Origin: a virus
Taxonomy: Duplodnaviria > Caudoviricetes
Reading direction: 5' to 3' (one strand)
DNA: 55,357 nucleotides
Virus record (IMG/VR): IMGVR_UViG_3300030110_000758
Coordinates: 1 to 55,357 of that record
The position numbers were made by a program, and so were the translations under genes. Under the pieces are notes generated by a model. The model was not told where the DNA came from. It saw only the letters and a list, made by a program, of their open reading frames with translations, and ran no database searches. This document shows positions 26,696-50,918 of the stretch, in pieces (position 1 is the first letter of the stretch; the number at the start of each line of letters is the position of its first letter).

Positions 26696-26700
26696 TACAC

Positions 26701-26729
26701 AGTTATACATATAAATTGTGTATTGTCAA
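26701..26729 (-). promoter_or_regulatory. Promoter for the MCP operon
   Basis: TTGACA-N16-TATAACT. Confidence 0.75.
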
Positions 26730-36332: not shown

Positions 36333-37013
36333 CTACTCCTTATCACTGTATAGATTGTTAAACACTCGTTGCGTATCCCAAACGTATTCTACGTCTTGCT
36401 TAGAGTGAAATATGTTTTGGTTTGGCCTAAAGTCAGGAGCACCTTCTCCTGTTTCAAACCAAGCGGGGTGAGTTACTCTCACTCTGTTGTTGGGCAACGC
36501 AACTATGTTACCAGTATATTCTCCTGCATCTAACAACTCCAATACATGTGATTGTTTGTGTTGGGCAGGATCATCTGCTACTTCGCTATCTGTATAATCA
36601 ACTGTAAAATAATATTTGCAAGGATAAAACTCATTATCAATCTTTGCTATCCAAGGCGCTGGGGTTGCTCTGTTAAGTACGTAAACAGAGTGATGATGTG
36701 ACATACAATCCCAAGGTTGAGCCATGTACGGTGGTAATTCAGTAGGCCAACCTTCTAACGGAGTATCAGCTACAAGGGCAGTAAGGGGCATTCTAGCCCA
36801 CATAGCTCCTCCGTGAACGTTGAGGTCTTCGTCCGATCCATCGAACTCGCATCCTGTAAATATAACTTGGAAACTGAGAGTCCTGTTGGGCATGGTTGTT
36901 ACTGCTATTACCATGCAGTGGAGAAACTCTCCGTGATATTCTTCTAAGTTCTTTGTGTATTCTCTTCTTACCCATGCTTTAAAATAAGGTATGTTACTTT
37001 GAAGATACGGCAT
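36333..37013 (-). CDS. Hypothetical phage protein
   Basis: 226 aa; VHGGAMWARMP, QPWDC, YYFTVDY, HKQSH, LPNNR. Confidence 0.8.
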   Translation of the reverse strand: MPYLQSNIPYFKAWVRREYTKNLEEYHGEFLHCMVIAVTTMPNRTLSFQVIFTGCEFDGSDEDLNVHGGAMWARMPLTALVADTPLEGWPTELPPYMAQPWDCMSHHHSVYVLNRATPAPWIAKIDNEFYPCKYYFTVDYTDSEVADDPAQHKQSHVLELLDAGEYTGNIVALPNNRVRVTHPAWFETGEGAPDFRPNQNIFHSKQDVEYVWDTQRVFNNLYSDKE

Positions 37014-37296
37014 CTCTTTCCTTTCGCAATCTTTCTTTAGCCTTTTTAGCTATCTGAACAACTTCTGTCTTACCCATTACTTTAGCACGTTGTTCCATAA
37101 CTGTCAAGATCTGAATTTTTCTTGCGAAAGGTTTTCCTGATTTTCGTACTCTTGCAACAGTTTCTCTTGCATCCTTTGTTGTTGCGAACTTTATTGGTAC
37201 AGTATCTTTAGGGTTTTCGTCTGTGTATAACCTACGCCCTGACCCTTTAGGTTTCTTACCTGTGCCTACTTTAGGATCTTTTTTCTTTTTAGTCAT
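36994..37296 (-). CDS. Small basic protein
   Basis: GTGKKPKGSGRRLYTDENP..ILTVMEQRA. Confidence 0.75.
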   Translation of the reverse strand: MTKKKKDPKVGTGKKPKGSGRRLYTDENPKDTVPIKFATTKDARETVARVRKSGKPFARKIQILTVMEQRAKVMGKTEVVQIAKKAKERLRKERDAVSSK

Positions 37297-37553
37297 GCTA
37301 CTACAAAATCTACTATCTGACCAGTAGGAGTACGCAGCTTGTTAGGATCTGGATAGTAAGCAAACTTTTGATTAACTAACTTAAGATCCTCTACTGGTGT
37401 ATTAGGAGTTATTTTAGTTGGCTCTTTTTGAGCATCTATCTTTTCTTCTTCGTTAGCTTTAGTCGATCTGTTCTTATCCCGTGACTCAAATACAATATTA
37501 TCGTGTGTATGAAAAGGCATACTAGGTAAAGGTAGATGACTAATCAAAGTCAT
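37293..37553 (-). CDS. Hypothetical protein
   Basis: 86-aa ORF with ATGA coupling; ends GQIVDFVVA. Confidence 0.65.
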   Translation of the reverse strand: MTLISHLPLPSMPFHTHDNIVFESRDKNRSTKANEEEKIDAQKEPTKITPNTPVEDLKLVNQKFAYYPDPNKLRTPTGQIVDFVVA

Positions 37554-37556
37554 AAG

Positions 37557-37775
37557 TTAAAGTTTCCAAGAACGCAAGTAAAAAGTAAAATTGTTTGGGT
37601 TCCAGCCTTGCTTTACGCAAGCATCTTTCCAAACATTGTACTTTTCTACAGCCACATCTTTAGCTTTTATAAAATCTTCGTAGGCCTTATCAACTTCACC
37701 GTAACGTAAGTTGTTTAGCTCTTGTTGTTTTTCTTCAATCTCTTTTTGAAGTTTTTCTTCTTGTGTCATTTCCAT
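37557..37775 (-). CDS. Hypothetical coiled-coil protein
   Basis: 72-aa ORF in operon. Confidence 0.7.
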   Translation of the reverse strand: MEMTQEEKLQKEIEEKQQELNNLRYGEVDKAYEDFIKAKDVAVEKYNVWKDACVKQGWNPNNFTFYLRSWKL

Positions 37776-37860
37776 TTTTCTTTCTTACCTTATTTTTAAT
37801 CCACATAAAAAGACTACTTAAAGTCAGAGCTGCGGAGACTATGTTTAAGAATGGTCCCAT
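37735..37860 (-). CDS. 41-aa single-TM peptide with basic tail (not in ORF track)
   Basis: MGPFLNIVSAALTLSSLFMWIKNKVRKK...; TAATG overlap with the upstream stop. Confidence 0.45.
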   Translation of the reverse strand: MGPFLNIVSAALTLSSLFMWIKNKVRKKNGNDTRRKTSKRD

Positions 37861-38144
37861 TACCAAGCTTTACATGACCAGTAACGTGCAGTAAACTTGT
37901 CTTTAGCTGTGTCACAGTTGTGTCTAGCTCTAAAGTTCTTACGAGCACCAGGGTTATCTTTACGAATTGGCATATCAGGATCACCAAAGCGTACAACCTT
38001 TACCTGATCACCCTTCTTAGCTAACACGGCTGACTTCTTAGCTTCACCTGATAGGCGTTTTGGTTTGTTATAACCAGGGTATGTTTCACCACGGTACTTT
38101 AACTTACCACTAGGTAGTCGTTCTACATCTTTAGTTGTAGCCAT
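37860..38144 (-). CDS. Small basic protein (DUF6321-like)
   Basis: KVVRFGDP..RKNFRARHNC..ARYWSCKAW; start moved to ATG 38144. Confidence 0.8.
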   Translation of the reverse strand: MATTKDVERLPSGKLKYRGETYPGYNKPKRLSGEAKKSAVLAKKGDQVKVVRFGDPDMPIRKDNPGARKNFRARHNCDTAKDKFTARYWSCKAW

Positions 38145-38157
38145 AGTAGTTAAACTT

Positions 38158-38355
38158 TCAAGTTTGCTTTTCAGGTTTAGGCATTTCCACACATTTACCT
38201 AGTACAAAGGAACTAGGTGTAGGCTTACTAGCGTTTAACACGTTCATTTGTGTAGCTAAACTGGAAACACATGTATCCATTGTAGGGTACAAAACTTGGT
38301 CTGACGCTACTTTATAACCACTATCCATAAACATTACAAATACTATTACAAACAT
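38158..38355 (-). CDS. Small exported two-Cys protein (paralog of 2908-3099)
   Basis: MFVIVFVMF..YPTMDTC..SKP..VLGKCV. Confidence 0.75.
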   Translation of the reverse strand: MFVIVFVMFMDSGYKVASDQVLYPTMDTCVSSLATQMNVLNASKPTPSSFVLGKCVEMPKPEKQT

Positions 38356-38612
38356 TATTCATACTTTCTTTTTCTATCTGGATCTAAAACCTCATTTGAC
38401 TCTAAGTAACCCTCTAAGTACATTGCACGTTCAACATGATCCAGTGTATATTTTTTTCCTGTACGATTATAAATAGCCTCACGAACATAGAACACATCTG
38501 ACTTAGGTATGTGTACTTTGTTTAGAAAACGTGTGTCTTCTGATGCTAAAGCCTCATAAAAGTCTTCAATTACGGACTCACTTGCATATAGTTGTACCTT
38601 TTTTTTGTACAT
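38355..38612 (-). CDS. Hypothetical protein, first gene of the structural arm
   Basis: HIPKSDVFYVREAI..VERAMYLEG. Confidence 0.75.
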   Translation of the reverse strand: MYKKKVQLYASESVIEDFYEALASEDTRFLNKVHIPKSDVFYVREAIYNRTGKKYTLDHVERAMYLEGYLESNEVLDPDRKRKYE

Positions 38613-38638
38613 TGTCAAGTCTTTATTTATAAAAAAGT

Positions 38639-38760
38639 AAAAAAATACTACAAACGTCTAGATGTACATGAGGGAGAGGAGACACAGATGGAGTTTGTAC
38701 TCTCTAAACGCTTGTAGTACTTTAAGTTTAACTACAAGTTATTATTATTATAGTAGTTAT
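38639..38760 (-). ncRNA. Candidate trans-acting antisense sRNA (hairpin with anti-SD / anti-AUG loop)
   Basis: Own promoter (38767-38795); 17-bp stem 38719-38703/38662-38646 with 2 G-U pairs on this strand; 27-nt C/U loop; U7 tail; loop region matches the helicase RBS at 22/25 nt. Confidence 0.65.
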
Positions 38761-38766
38761 GTAATT

Positions 38767-38795
38767 ATAATAGCATGTGTTAAGTTATATGTCAA
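38767..38795 (-). promoter_or_regulatory. sigma70-like promoter (sRNA / structural arm)
   Basis: TTGACA-N17-TATTAT with extended -10 TG. Confidence 0.65.
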
Positions 38796-38908
38796 TAGTT
38801 AATTTATATTTATTTATATTATTAATAGTTTAACTATAAGTTGTACTATCCTATGTCCAATTTCTTATATTTTAACTATAAAGTTTAACTTAGCTGCTAC
38901 TGCTACGC

Positions 38909-38937
38909 AGTTATACATAAAAAAACACCTCTGTCAA
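38909..38937 (-). promoter_or_regulatory. Promoter at the head of the structural arm
   Basis: TTGACA-N16-TATAACT, with the same ATGTATAACTG as the MCP promoter. Confidence 0.7.
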
Positions 38938-39269
38938 GTAGTGACGTTACGTAACTTTACTAATGTTTCTTTAATAATTTACCTTTATAGATAAACACCA
39001 GTATCTGTATACAATATATAGTGTTCTAAAAGTAAAAACCCCGTGTGTTGCAGTGTGTGTATACATATACGCTATACCCCCAGGTGGCCCTCGCCTGACC
39101 CTATGCTGCCCCAATGTCTATTTGCGGCATTTCATAGAGCAAAAACGACACAATAAAACTATAAACAGATACTAAACAAAGTTTTACGCTGCCAAACTAT
39201 TGTTTTTATTACGTTTTATTACAGATAAGGTATCTGTACACGTAGGCTATATAGGAATAATGCGTATTT

Positions 39270-39297
39270 TTGACCAAGTAGTCAGCTTTTCTATAGT
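39270..39297 (+). promoter_or_regulatory. Candidate early promoter upstream of the LexA boxes
   Basis: TTGACC-N16-TATAGT. Confidence 0.5.
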
Positions 39298-39311
39298 GGA
39301 TGCACAACTTA

Positions 39312-39366
39312 GAACGAACCAGGAACAAACGCAGCTTTTAGAACAACACGAGAACATTACAAGTAC
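39312..39366 (+). promoter_or_regulatory. Alphaproteobacterial LexA (SOS) boxes
   Basis: GAAC-N7-GAAC at 39312-39326 and 39341-39355; overlapping GAAC-N7-GTAC at 39352-39366. Confidence 0.7.
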
Positions 39367-39555
39367 ATCCCCCTGCCATGTTGCACAGATATACCCCAAG
39401 CTTTTTTTGCCATTATAATGTATTATCCTTTTGGGCTGATTCGTTTCCAATAGTATAGTTTTTTCTTTCTTTGGTAAAACATCAGCAATCTTACCTCAAA
39501 AGTTTTTTTAAATGTCTTTTATTTCCAATGCTTTATGAGAAAGTTATTTTTTTTC

Positions 39556-39585
39556 TTGCAATCTGTTTTTGCTTATGTCTTAACT
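39556..39585 (+). promoter_or_regulatory. Candidate early promoter
   Basis: TTGCAA-N17-CTTAACT with TG and a T-rich UP region. Confidence 0.45.
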
Positions 39586-39613
39586 TATGGAAAGCAAAAC
39601 GAAAGGAAAACCA

Positions 39614-39820
39614 ATGTTTGACAATGAAATGAGAAAAAATCTAATTAGGTCTCTTATCCGTACCTACTATCAATTTGAGCTTAACGAAGAGCACCACGAG
39701 CCAACTTTTCAAACATATGAAAGACTAGAATTTGAAATGCGTAGATTAATGACGGAAGACGAGTATCAGATATTCTTTGATTGCAATGAATTTCAAGGTG
39801 AGCACTACGCTTTTATTTAA
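39614..39820 (+). CDS. Early hypothetical protein (acidic)
   Basis: AAAGGA SD before ATG 39614 (MFDNEMRKN). Confidence 0.7.
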   Translation: MFDNEMRKNLIRSLIRTYYQFELNEEHHEPTFQTYERLEFEMRRLMTEDEYQIFFDCNEFQGEHYAFI

Positions 39821-39824
39821 TAAC

Positions 39825-39874
39825 TTGACTCTCTCTTCTAGGTGTGCAACGGTACACCTATGACGGAGAGTCAA
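39825..39874 (+). promoter_or_regulatory. RNase III-type processing hairpin
   Basis: 10-bp lower stem, 4x4 internal loop, 9-bp upper stem, AACG tetraloop; no U tract. Confidence 0.5.
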
Positions 39875-39998
39875 ACGCAAAGAGTAGCCCTAGTGCCTCG
39901 ATCCTTTGCTTTGACCGTTACAAGCTCGCAGGTGTGATCTAGTCCTGCATTGGTAAGGTGAGACATATGAGCCACTAAACCACAGACTAAAATAAAAC

Positions 39999-40027
39999 TT
40001 GACTACAGAACGACTAAATGCAAGACT
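39999..40027 (+). promoter_or_regulatory. Candidate early promoter
   Basis: TTGACT-N16-CAAGACT after an A-rich UP element. Confidence 0.4.
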
Positions 40028-41574: not shown

Positions 41575-41600
41575 CATTTAGGATATATGGAGACACAGCA

Positions 41601-44199: not shown

Positions 44200-44409
44200 A
44201 TGGCCTTGTATATTAAAAGAGTTCTTATCGCCTTCTCAGTATTAGTTAACGTAATACTTGGTGGCACGAACAATCAAACGTTTAGCGCTAGGAATTGGCA
44301 ATGGAAAAGAGAGCATAAGCCTAACTTGGTTTGGCTGCTTGATTTAGTTATAGGGAAAGGACACTGTTCAGAATGTTGGGTTTACTGGAAGACACGCAGG
44401 AGATGGTAA
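44200..44409 (+). CDS. Hypothetical protein
   Basis: NVILGG..QTFSAR..GHC; GAGG SD. Confidence 0.75.
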   Translation: MALYIKRVLIAFSVLVNVILGGTNNQTFSARNWQWKREHKPNLVWLLDLVIGKGHCSECWVYWKTRRRW

Positions 44410-45293
44410 AAGCTAAGACAGTACAACAGCTAGTGTATGCATACTTAAAATCAGATGCGTTCCGCAAGCTAGGCAGAGCATCGAAGATAGACTACTCTGA
44501 TTGCTTAAATATAATAGAAGATGAATTAGGACATATCAGTATCAAATCAGGTTTGACTGTACCTACCATGCAGAAACACTACAACATTTGGCTAGAACGT
44601 GGAGTGCATCGTGCAAACAAGATAGCTGCGATCATGTCTATACTTATTAATTGGTCTACGAAGAATAACTTACGTGTCTTCAACCCTATGAAGTACCTAG
44701 ACAAGACACCTAACCCTGCACGTAAAGTTATATGGGAGCCAAGCCAGGTTAAGATATTCTTGGATACAGCGTACAGCCAGTGGAAGTGGAGATCCGTAGG
44801 CTTGATTGTGCAGATGGCTTACGAGTGGGGTCAGCGTGTAGGTGATATGCGTATGCTGTTGTGGAACGCTATAGATTTAGACAAAGGACGCTGTGATTTC
44901 GAGCAAAGCAAACGAGGTGAGGCAGTGCATTTGCCTATCAGTGATGGCTTGATGCACGTACTGAGACAGCAACACGAAACGTTTAGCTTTCAAGTATTGG
45001 TAGCACCACAGATACAGCCTAGTGATGGAGCGTACAAGCCGTACACTAAGGAGGGTCTTCACGTACACGTCAATGCAATACTCAAGGAAGCTGGACTACC
45101 AAGCCACCTGACAGCTATGGATATGCGCCGTACAGCTATCACTGAGATGGTTGAAGCTGGTGTAGATATAACACAGATCAAACAAGTTAGTGGACACACT
45201 AGCATAAATAGCTTGACTCCGTATATCAAACACACGTATACTGGAGCATCAGAAGCATTAGCCCAGCGCAATGCGTACAAGGATAAAGAGTGA
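44403..45293 (+). CDS. int: Tyrosine recombinase / integrase
   Basis: GQRVGD (R), QSKRG (K), MDMRRT (HxxR variant), SGH, PY; AGGAG SD at ATG 44403. Confidence 0.85.
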   Translation: MVKAKTVQQLVYAYLKSDAFRKLGRASKIDYSDCLNIIEDELGHISIKSGLTVPTMQKHYNIWLERGVHRANKIAAIMSILINWSTKNNLRVFNPMKYLDKTPNPARKVIWEPSQVKIFLDTAYSQWKWRSVGLIVQMAYEWGQRVGDMRMLLWNAIDLDKGRCDFEQSKRGEAVHLPISDGLMHVLRQQHETFSFQVLVAPQIQPSDGAYKPYTKEGLHVHVNAILKEAGLPSHLTAMDMRRTAITEMVEAGVDITQIKQVSGHTSINSLTPYIKHTYTGASEALAQRNAYKDKE

Positions 45294-49697: not shown

Positions 49698-50918
49698 ATG
49701 GAGTTGGCACTAATAAGAACCTTGATGGACAAGGAGTTCTACGAAAACAATAAAGGTATTCGCACTCCAGATAATTTATTTAGTAAAGATCTACGTGGTA
49801 TAAAAAGAACTTTAGACTACGCTATGGAGACATACGAGAGGAGCATAACACCAGCAGAATTAGAAGGACTATTCTTCACACACAACGTGTTGACTACAGC
49901 TAACAAAGATTCTTACAGAGAGTTGTTCAAGAAGATAAACAAAGCAGAACCTATGTCGTCTGACATTGCACAGGAAGTTATGGGTAATTTGTTTCAGAAG
50001 TTAGTAGGAGAGGAGATAGCTAACTTGGGCGTTAAGTATGTCAACGGTGCAGAGAATACACTGGAGCCTATACGTAAAATAATAGAAGACTATCAAGATG
50101 ATTTCATGCCTAACTTGAAGATTGATTGGGGTGACATATCTATTGACACCTTACTAGAGAAGGCTGACGTACAAGCTAAGTGGAAGTTTAATATACCATC
50201 TCTTCAAAGACGTATAGAGGGTGTGTCAGGTGGTCATTTAGTTTTGGTAGGTGCAAGACCAAATACAGGCAAGACATCTTTCCATGCTTCGATCATAGCT
50301 TCTGAAGATGGGTTTGCTAGGCAGGGTGCTAAGTGTATAGTTCTGTGCAATGAAGAATCCTATGATCGTGTAGGTGCAAGGTATCTAAGTGCTGCATCTA
50401 ACATGTCTATGGATGAAGTTAAAGGTAACTATGCATTAGCTGCAACTAGATACAAACCTGTGCACGATAACATTAAGATCAAGGATAGCACAGGTAAAGA
50501 TATGCGCTGGGTTGAGGCTGTAGTTAAGGCATACCAGCCTGACATTTTGGTGTTGGATATGGGTGACAAGTTTGCTAGTAAGGGTAGTGCCGACTCGCAT
50601 GTGTATCTCAAAGACGCAGCGATACATGCACGTAACATAGCGAAGCAGTATGACTGTGCTATCATCTGGATGTCACAACTGTCTGCTGATGCTGAAGGTA
50701 AAGTTTACGTAGATCAATCTATGATGGAAGGTAGTAAGACAGGCAAGGCAGCAGAGTGTGATTTAATGATCTTGATTTCTAAGAACCCACAAGTGGAGGG
50801 CCAAGATGAACAAGATTCACAAAGACATTTGAACATAGCTAAGAATAAACTACGTGGTGGATGGCATGGTGTTGTACACTGTGAGTTAGACGGTGATAGA
50901 TCAAGGTACACAGTATGA
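49698..50918 (+). CDS. DnaB-like replicative helicase
   Basis: Walker A GARPNTGKT, CNEE, LVLD, MSQL, IAKNK; AAGGAG SD at ATG 49698. Confidence 0.9.
   Translation: MELALIRTLMDKEFYENNKGIRTPDNLFSKDLRGIKRTLDYAMETYERSITPAELEGLFFTHNVLTTANKDSYRELFKKINKAEPMSSDIAQEVMGNLFQKLVGEEIANLGVKYVNGAENTLEPIRKIIEDYQDDFMPNLKIDWGDISIDTLLEKADVQAKWKFNIPSLQRRIEGVSGGHLVLVGARPNTGKTSFHASIIASEDGFARQGAKCIVLCNEESYDRVGARYLSAASNMSMDEVKGNYALAATRYKPVHDNIKIKDSTGKDMRWVEAVVKAYQPDILVLDMGDKFASKGSADSHVYLKDAAIHARNIAKQYDCAIIWMSQLSADAEGKVYVDQSMMEGSKTGKAAECDLMILISKNPQVEGQDEQDSQRHLNIAKNKLRGGWHGVVHCELDGDRSRYTV

Follow-up and report, generated by a model that had tools for sequence, protein, structure and literature searches.

The 55,357-nucleotide (nt) virus record IMGVR_UViG_3300030110_000758 from IMG/VR (hereafter the window, meaning this whole stretch) carries a minus-sense structured RNA unit with its own predicted promoter and terminator, and comparison with relatives confirmed from sequence that this unit is real and conserved. 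It comprises a promoter (P2), a small hairpin (hairpin 1) and a long hairpin (hairpin 2) with a C/U-rich apical loop and a U-tail, and it stands directly ahead of the first gene of the minus-strand arm (Table 1). The element is undescribed.

The window is a complete virus record (55,357 bp, completeness 100) from an HMO-2011-type podophage, whose large terminase shares 80-83% identity with its counterparts in the Roseobacter phages CRP-2 and CRP-603 and 73.5% with the HMO-2011 protein. Its minus-strand arm runs from 38612 to about 3248 and begins with about a dozen small open reading frames (ORFs) of unknown function, followed by the terminase, portal and structural genes. The plus-strand arm runs from about 39260 across the record end to 2722 and encodes a methylase, an integrase, a primase, a thymidylate synthase, a helicase and a DNA polymerase. 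The RNA unit is located in the A/T-rich divergent region that separates both arms.

The RNA unit and its conservation

With a score of 11/12, P2 was the top promoter-like site between 37500 and 40500; such sites numbered 10 in this interval, not above shuffled sequence (9.3 +/- 2.9). The transcription start is predicted near 38760. The original prediction, made from the sequence of the window without database searches, had proposed a minus-strand promoter (TTGACA-N17-TATTAT), a 17-bp stem, a 5-bp inner stem, a loop and a U7 tail, and all of these were present as described, with A-U pairs extending the outer stem to 21 bp. The conserved core of the loop, GUGUCUCCUC, is the reverse complement of 38676-38685. 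The folded minus-strand RNA (38765-38630) had a minimum free energy of -35.3 kcal/mol (z -5.8, 0/200 shuffles as stable). Hairpin 2 alone reached -30.0 kcal/mol in the minus sense (z -7.3, 0/200) versus -19.1 kcal/mol in the plus sense (z -1.8, 11/200), thus the earlier argument that G-U pairs in the stem favor the minus strand holds in the window genome. By its sequence, a stem of -30 kcal/mol running directly into U7 has the form of an intrinsic terminator; a loop of 27 nt is uncommon in terminators, and a simple scan for terminators with loops of 3-8 nt missed hairpin 2.

Table 1 Coordinates of the RNA unit, nearby features and the best predicted target in the window.
Feature	Position	Strand	Description
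First minus-arm gene, 85 amino acids	38355..38612	minus	highly conserved (mean column identity 81%), no Shine-Dalgarno sequence
Promoter-like element P3, over the start of the 85-amino-acid gene	38586..38623	minus	TTGACA, N16, TACAAC
U7 tail, terminator U-tract	38640..38646	minus	A7 on the plus strand; read from sequence
Hairpin 2	38642..38723	minus	stem of 21 + 5 bp with apical loop; also the predicted intrinsic terminator stem
Unpaired C/U-rich loop	38669..38695	minus	27 nt, AACUCCAUCUGUGUCUCCUCUCCCUCA; from the predicted fold
Hairpin 1 (inverted repeat), RNA 5' end	38729..38759	minus	7-bp stem, 17-nt A/U-rich loop
Promoter P2 of the RNA	38767..38795	minus	-35 TTGACA 38795-38790, N17, TG extended -10, -10 TATTAT 38772-38767
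Upstream promoter-like site P1, reading towards the RNA	38910..38937	minus	TTGACA-N16-TATAAC
Helicase ribosome-binding site and start, best predicted phage target	49687..49711	plus	ATG at 49698-49700; 22/25 identical to the loop template

Hairpin 1 may be an RNA hairpin or else a DNA operator. One copy of the motif AGTTTAACTAYAAGTT overlaps its 3' arm, so it may be a DNA site and not an RNA hairpin. Coding on the plus strand was considered and rejected: the 9-codon ORF behind AGGAGACACAG-ATG was lost in relatives, and the L014 and L022 types have no ATG in the complement of the loop.

The first minus-arm gene, encoding 85 amino acids (aa), has 487 relatives in IMG/VR, from which the best 80 loci were kept. 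Sequence of 150 nt or more ahead of the gene was available for 79 regions (the window, CRP-2 and 77 IMG/VR loci), of which 65 were distinct. In 60 of these 65, a hairpin of 19-48 pairs had the core GUGUCUCCUC unpaired in its apical loop, exposed as the seed of a base-pairing small RNA would be. The layout was conserved in order, that is, promoter, small hairpin, long hairpin with the core in its loop, mostly a U-run, and the first minus-arm gene; the distance from the unit to the ATG was 20-48 nt across lineages, and the gene was always the same. The exceptions were L046, L068, L075 and L083, with a C/U motif in another context, and L074 (duplicate L079), with a plain terminator hairpin only. 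Among 41 aligned sequences, loop columns G99 and T100 were invariant, and T98, T102, C103, T104, C105 and C106 were at least 90% conserved. The bottom stem sequences were wholly different between lineages (e.g., GUACUACAAG, GUGUUACAAC, CGUGCUGCGA and CGUGUGUAGA). All 12 divergent lineage representatives folded with z from -4.1 to -10.4, values that none of 200 shuffles reached.

RNAalifold returned 0 pairs on the plain MAFFT alignment of the 41 sequences because the stems were out of register. On an 18-sequence subgroup, it found 20 pairs, of which 10 showed compensatory changes, and a covariance model built from this subgroup recovered the element at the expected strand and place in 55 of the 65 sources, in addition to three weak reverse-strand matches. 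In the model-aligned set of 54 distinct rows, with the three reverse-strand matches included, 93% of cells were paired versus 22-48% with the partner slid. All 20 pairs were changed on both sides, with 253 compensatory cells versus 70 +/- 7 in shuffles (0/500), and for hairpin 1 all five pairs were changed on both sides with 91% of cells paired; counting against these numbers, a model-fitted alignment leans to the structure of its model and the rows are related, so the covariation is overstated. The folds of the 12 lineages are independent and thus free of the model-fitting weakness.

The sense of the RNA was also reflected in the pairs: the long helix (helix 2) had 70 G-U versus 20 A-C cells, and the small helix (helix 1) had 27 versus 7. 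For 33 of 44 distinct sequences, the minus-sense form of hairpin 2 was the more stable one (p 8e-4); counting against this, the asymmetry over 140-nt regions was weak (35/65, p 0.057). Of 61 distinct regions, 59 had a site of the form TTGACA (with at most one mismatch)-N16-18-TAnnn[T/C] ahead of the hairpins, mostly with TGn before the -10 and typically ending 42-45 nt before the long hairpin. A U-run (at least five T in the 8 nt after helix 2) was present in 42 of 51 distinct sequences. This is the anatomy of a small RNA gene, whose predicted product would be some 115-150 nt long. The promoter belongs to the consensus sigma-70 type and looks constitutive, and its sequence calls for no activator; with such a host-type promoter, nothing in the sequence marks late timing. 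The original prediction had placed the RNA under late control, which fits neither this promoter with its extended -10 nor the genes just downstream, which are small ORFs of unknown function and not structural genes.

Three of the five isolates compared (CRP-2, CRP-603 and CRP-207) have the element, and HMO-2011 and CRP-9 are without it. In CRP-207 (L247, upstream of gp76) the apical loop has the core twice, as GUGUCUCCUC and AUGUCUCCUC, 13 nt apart. In HMO-2011 (L245, 9180-9400, minus strand) a perfect TTGACA-N17-TATAAT is located upstream of the homologous first gene, and the hairpin site has three copies of a CACTTAAGTG-type palindrome and no C/U-loop hairpin.

No Rfam family was detected at the gathering score in the whole window, with only chance lines at E <= 10 in 38000-40000, and none was found at E <= 1 in 11 divergent loci. 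A megablast search of a phage collection with the 6 kb around the RNA site gave no match. The pattern core-N45-75-TTGACAATG was detected in 55 IMG/VR stretches, nearly all from the HMO-2011-type group. Bacterial or prophage copies were rejected as chance, given that the 63 pattern matches came from unrelated phyla and 0/63 fit the RNA model; this pattern required the exact core and a fixed gap range, which diverged copies would escape. A term search of the text of the main paper on the group (PMC9038755) returned no promoter, non-coding or intergenic element, and a full-text literature search (supplementary files aside) found no relevant paper on small RNAs, promoters or terminators of HMO-2011 phages. 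In a term search of a 2025 review of phage small RNAs (PMC12197685), neither "Roseobacter" nor "alphaproteobacteri" appeared.

Pairing of the loop with phage start sites

What the loop may do is less certain. We consider it possible, at a little below even probability and judging by sequence, that the product is a trans-acting anti-Shine-Dalgarno RNA that damps strong start sites of the GAGGAGACAC type, with the helicase as the best candidate target. Host sigma-70 RNA polymerase would transcribe a non-coding RNA of about 115-120 nt from the strong promoter in the divergent region, and the RNA would end at its own long-hairpin terminator, 28 nt ahead of the first minus-arm gene. The loop would be the working part, pairing with ribosome-binding sites of the form GAGGAGACAC(..AUG), most of which are found on the replication arm; in the window genome and in several other lineages, the leading candidate is the helicase start. 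Such pairing would block 30S binding and lower translation. As the core goes little beyond an extended anti-Shine-Dalgarno sequence, the RNA would probably act as a broad, graded damper of strong phage (possibly also host) start sites, and not as a switch for one co-evolving target. Terminator read-through would feed the downstream genes, which, being without Shine-Dalgarno sequences, would be immune to the RNA.

The evidence was strongest in the window itself. The template at 38677-38701 matched the helicase ribosome-binding site and start at 22/25 positions overall and 18/19 in the loop, exactly as originally predicted, and BLAST of a 231-nt query against its own genome found the loop/helicase pair independently (E 4.9e-4). 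The shorter matches proposed at 41589, 41334, 40445, 40614 and 46715 were present as written. GGAGACA-type sites are also found at the starts of a 75-aa, a 111-aa and a 125-aa gene. The target set consisted of 80 crudely called starts in the window, each taken from -30 to +15. Among these, the duplex of the loop with the helicase start ranked 1/80 at -37.2 kcal/mol (next, -24.4), bearing out the helicase as the top phage target in this genome. The best targets of 500 shuffled loops averaged -20.9 +/- 2.3 kcal/mol, and 0/500 reached the helicase value. Co-folding of the whole RNA with the helicase leader gained -17.7 kcal/mol, versus -2.1 +/- 1.1 for shuffled loops (0/100). The shuffled-loop controls keep the composition and break the contiguous CUCCUC, so they overstate the specificity; in response, a cross-loop matrix and ranks by loop average and by Shine-Dalgarno strength were added.

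For these comparisons we used nine related contigs and CRP-2, each in full. The helicase start of G007 was miscalled and therefore unranked, and G008, with an ill-defined loop (58 nt), was dropped from the cross-loop matrix. With the own loop of each genome, the helicase ranked 1, 11, 2, 32, 27, 15, 5, 1, 2 and 4, that is, 5th or better in 6/10, where the window value was taken after removing an ORF antisense to the RNA itself. Averaged over ten loops, the helicase ranks were 1/90, 10/87, 3/73, 7/85, 28/100, 9/87, 1/90, 1/68, 1/80 and 2/81 (top 3 in 6/10). The ranks by generic Shine-Dalgarno strength were 24, 21, 2, 11, 42, 28, 4, 15, 3 and 25, and the loop-averaged rank was the better one in 9/10 genomes, with the exception of G002. 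The identical 25-mer helicase match was present in a 98% relative, and a recurrent match of 9-11 nt between the core and the helicase ribosome site in its GAGGAGACAC form was found in G006, G010 and CRP-2, with 8 nt in G008. On contig G007 (7723-9765), the genome's own loop had its outstanding partner in the DNA polymerase start and not in the helicase (-35.2 kcal/mol; runner-up, -24.6).

Ribosome sites complementary to the loop beyond its Shine-Dalgarno portion were also biased towards the replication arm. GGAG followed by ACAC occurred in 12/221 on the replication arm versus 0/108 on the arm of the RNA. GAGAC, AGACAC or GACACA were found in 53/475 versus 12/444, about four times more commonly on the replication arm, with the same direction in 9/11 genomes and individual significance in one only. 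The first eight minus-arm genes paired worst with the loop (-5.0 to -11.2 kcal/mol).

A number of observations weigh against this reading. Only the window and the 98% relative have the long helicase match; in a 90% relative that shares the loop, the sequence before the helicase gene differs, and the helicase ranks 11/87 at -20.4 kcal/mol. The own-loop helicase ranks were as low as 32/85 in G003, 27/100 in G004 and 15/87 in G005. The best own targets of the relatives were mostly no better than those of shuffled loops (13, 30, 27, 76, 8, 18, 45, 10 and 58 of 100 at least as good); 0/100 shuffles reached this level in G007, only since its top match is a spurious ORF that runs antisense to the RNA. 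Cognate loops had no advantage over non-cognate ones on the starts of their own genome (2081/5000 permutations at least as extreme; 4254/5000 with the window excluded). In the window, the mean pairing energies of replication and structural arm starts were -14.1 versus -12.5 kcal/mol (p 0.18). The gene calls are home-made with some starts wrong, and since related genomes and orthologous genes were pooled, the statistics on arms and ranks are not independent. HMO-2011, CRP-9 and two IMG/VR lineages do without the loop, which is therefore dispensable.

The original prediction of a multi-target switch on replication and early genes was thus upheld in part. The anti-Shine-Dalgarno loop, the helicase rank and the bias towards the replication arm agree with it, whereas the expected co-variation of loop and target across HMO-2011-type genomes did not appear in the cognate test, and neither the late timing nor conservation of the long helicase match was borne out.

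The first minus-arm gene and neighboring control elements

The 85-aa gene starts 28 nt past the U-tail, with an invariant TTGACA (38613-38618) just before it. Its protein had no match in PHROG, Pfam (E <= 1), ESM Atlas or profile and sequence searches of the PDB, and the AlphaFold model was of low confidence (predicted local distance difference test, pLDDT, 58.2; predicted template modelling score, pTM, 0.37). The first eight minus-arm genes (36975-38612) are without a recognizable Shine-Dalgarno sequence, and most later minus-arm genes and plus-arm genes have one.

Directly after the terminator, at the start of the 85-aa gene, an invariant TTGACAATG was detected. Within the gene, at +15 to +26 and 16 bases past TTGACA, the third codon positions of the block GTACAACTATAT were conserved too, and later codons vary (61 distinct sequences). 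The two parts together form P3, which is kept in HMO-2011 and, from its sequence, looks like another promoter, whose transcripts would start inside the 85-aa gene. If P3 is a promoter, the RNA unit would be insulated from the genes behind it, which favors an autonomous RNA. Further plus-strand copies of TTGACAATG are located at 39618 and 44076.

Upstream of the unit, the TTGACA-N16-TATAAC of P1 recurs with the same flank (TATGTATAACTG) at 26700-26729 on the minus strand, just above the gene called at 26486-25413, and the two sites are possibly a second promoter class. The AGTTTAACTAYAAGTT motif has four copies in the divergent region (38724-38740, 38826-38842, 38868-38881 and 38881-38890), and related TAGTTAAAC repeats are found upstream of the RNA promoter in many relatives; these repeats are probably operator sites. 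A G/C-rich block at 39036-39101 (CCCCGTGTG...GGTGGCCCTCGCCTGACCC) within the A/T-rich region is common to CRP-1, CRP-2 and CRP-345. Its folding was unremarkable (z -1.9 and -1.4), and it sits in the intergenic region that contains both ends of the linear isolate records.

A tyrosine integrase gene is located at 44373-45293 (PHROG 1, E 2.4e-32), thus the phage may be temperate. An integrase is also present in CRP-2 and CRP-603. No repressor was recognized among the window proteins, where most small proteins match nothing. Among the comparison genomes, the 58.6-kb G004 contig has the same 155-aa gene near both ends (693-1160 and 56032-56502), so it probably overlaps itself as a circular or terminally redundant assembly.

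Known systems, alternative readings and significance

Several known regulators resemble the proposed anti-Shine-Dalgarno RNA in function or position. The C-rich-loop small RNAs of Firmicutes (RsaE/RoxS) repress translation via the Shine-Dalgarno region of many mRNAs, and T4 RegA and RegB are proteins that turn down early genes via GGAG sites; the resemblance is functional only, as the organisms are unrelated. P4 CI RNA is a comparable phage immunity RNA, beside c4 of P1/P7. According to two papers (PMC12197685, PMC8198154), loop sequences of the P1 c4 RNA pair around a ribosome-binding site and block translation. Similar to P1/P7 c4, the window RNA is a phage small RNA from an operon leader in the control region, in a phage that also has an integrase. 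Unlike c4, whose target is downstream in its own operon, the RNA has downstream genes that are without Shine-Dalgarno sequences and pair poorly, and its candidate targets are on the opposite arm, 11 kb away; similarity to c4 in sequence and model was compared through Rfam only.

A second explanation, which we regard as rather unlikely yet the most serious of the alternatives, is that the promoter-proximal terminator is itself the point. The unit would be a cis-acting leader or attenuator with controlled read-through, as in lambda pR'-tR', the C/U loop would be bound by a phage or host factor or by polymerase itself, and the short RNA would be a by-product. The invariable position of the unit, directly upstream of the same gene, is what such a leader would have, and L074/L079 keep the promoter and a plain terminator hairpin without the C/U loop, suggesting that termination there matters in itself. 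In its architecture, with a promoter and then a terminator preceding a long operon, the unit is the same as the lambda-type late promoter and terminator yielding 6S RNA or StxS, where, as described in PMC7547250, a strong promoter with an immediate terminator gives a short RNA able to regulate in trans. Unlike at pR'-tR', the genes just downstream are not late, the loop is anti-Shine-Dalgarno, and no Q- or N-type antiterminator was recognized among 40 window proteins compared with PHROGs, apart from one weak "Q-like" line inside the DNA polymerase; this negative is weak evidence, since most small proteins have no family. Furthermore, P3, conserved at synonymous sites, follows the terminator, so the downstream genes may not need read-through. 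In HMO-2011, the gene and a consensus promoter ahead of it are retained with no comparable terminator hairpin, and termination does not necessitate a 20-30 nt loop with an anti-Shine-Dalgarno core.

The RNA could instead be directed at the host, as a mimic of host cuckoo/CcsR-type small RNAs or as a sponge for a host RNA-binding protein, and would then reprogramme host translation or stress regulation, with the phage helicase match incidental. A hairpin with a U-tail is the usual 3' end of chaperone-bound small RNAs, which counts for such a role. In PMC8034643, the cuckoo/CcsR RNAs of Rhodobacteraceae are described as having C/U-rich anti-Shine-Dalgarno sequences in loops and are defined by at least two hairpins, each with a CCUCCUCCC loop; they are sometimes located in the 5' region of a small protein gene, as the phage RNA is. 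The isolates with the RNA infect Rhodobacteraceae, the very family with these cuckoo RNAs, and the phage RNA shares with cuckoo/CcsR/NfeR (Rfam ar14-type) the C/U-rich anti-Shine-Dalgarno sequence in a hairpin loop. Exact CCUCCUCCC is present in the loops of some relatives (L058, L077, L078, L080 and L082), and the missing co-variation of the loop with phage targets fits a target outside the phage. Unlike cuckoo RNAs, the phage RNA is phage-borne and has one C/U loop, not two, on a very long terminator stem (19-48 pairs); its core is GUGUCUCCUC, the window loop reads CUCCUCUCCCUC and not CCUCCUCCC, and no covariance model matched it, the alphaproteobacterial families of Rfam included (in the window and, at E <= 1, in the 11 divergent loci). 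The adjacent gene is not the DUF1127 gene of the CIN1 subgroup, its 85-aa product having no Pfam match at E <= 1, and no bacterial genome copy was found, none of the 63 pattern matches fitting the model. With these points on both sides, a host-directed RNA appears improbable. By analogy, the phage RNA resembles cuckoo/CcsR and P1 c4 in mechanism, and its features place it outside the membership of both.

An element acting as DNA, i.e., an inverted repeat with a polypurine/polypyrimidine centre serving as a cruciform, origin, packaging or protein-binding site, would suit an A/T-rich divergent region dense in repeats and inverted repeats, in the same intergenic region where linear isolate records begin and end, but is highly implausible, as G-U pairs outnumber A-C pairs by about 3.5 to 1 with the hairpin more stable in the minus sense, the upstream promoter and downstream U-run are conserved on the minus strand only, and the stem sequences change freely while pairing is kept, where protein-binding DNA repeats usually keep their sequence.

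Trans, cis and host-directed roles are not mutually exclusive. More tentatively than the anti-Shine-Dalgarno reading itself, we propose that these RNAs could form a cuckoo-like riboregulator family with a constitutive promoter in the control region of abundant marine roseophages, with which the phages throttle their own replication genes, the helicase first, and perhaps tap a host CcsR-type stress regulon. If true, the family would stand as an RNA equivalent to protein-based shut-off of early genes, or to the RNA immunity of temperate phages, in a phage group with no known regulator of any type.

HMO-2011-type phages are among the most abundant viruses of the surface ocean, and the papers on them cover gene content and biogeography. 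The conserved control-region RNA would be the first regulatory element defined for this group, and the three cultured phage-host pairs that carry it (CRP-2, CRP-603 and CRP-207) make direct testing possible. Even if it is only a leader terminator, it would still be a new RNA motif for family libraries. If it acts on ribosome-binding sites, it would extend the theme of alphaproteobacterial anti-Shine-Dalgarno small RNAs to phages, and would give a handle on the balance of replication, late growth and, with an integrase present, possibly lysogeny.

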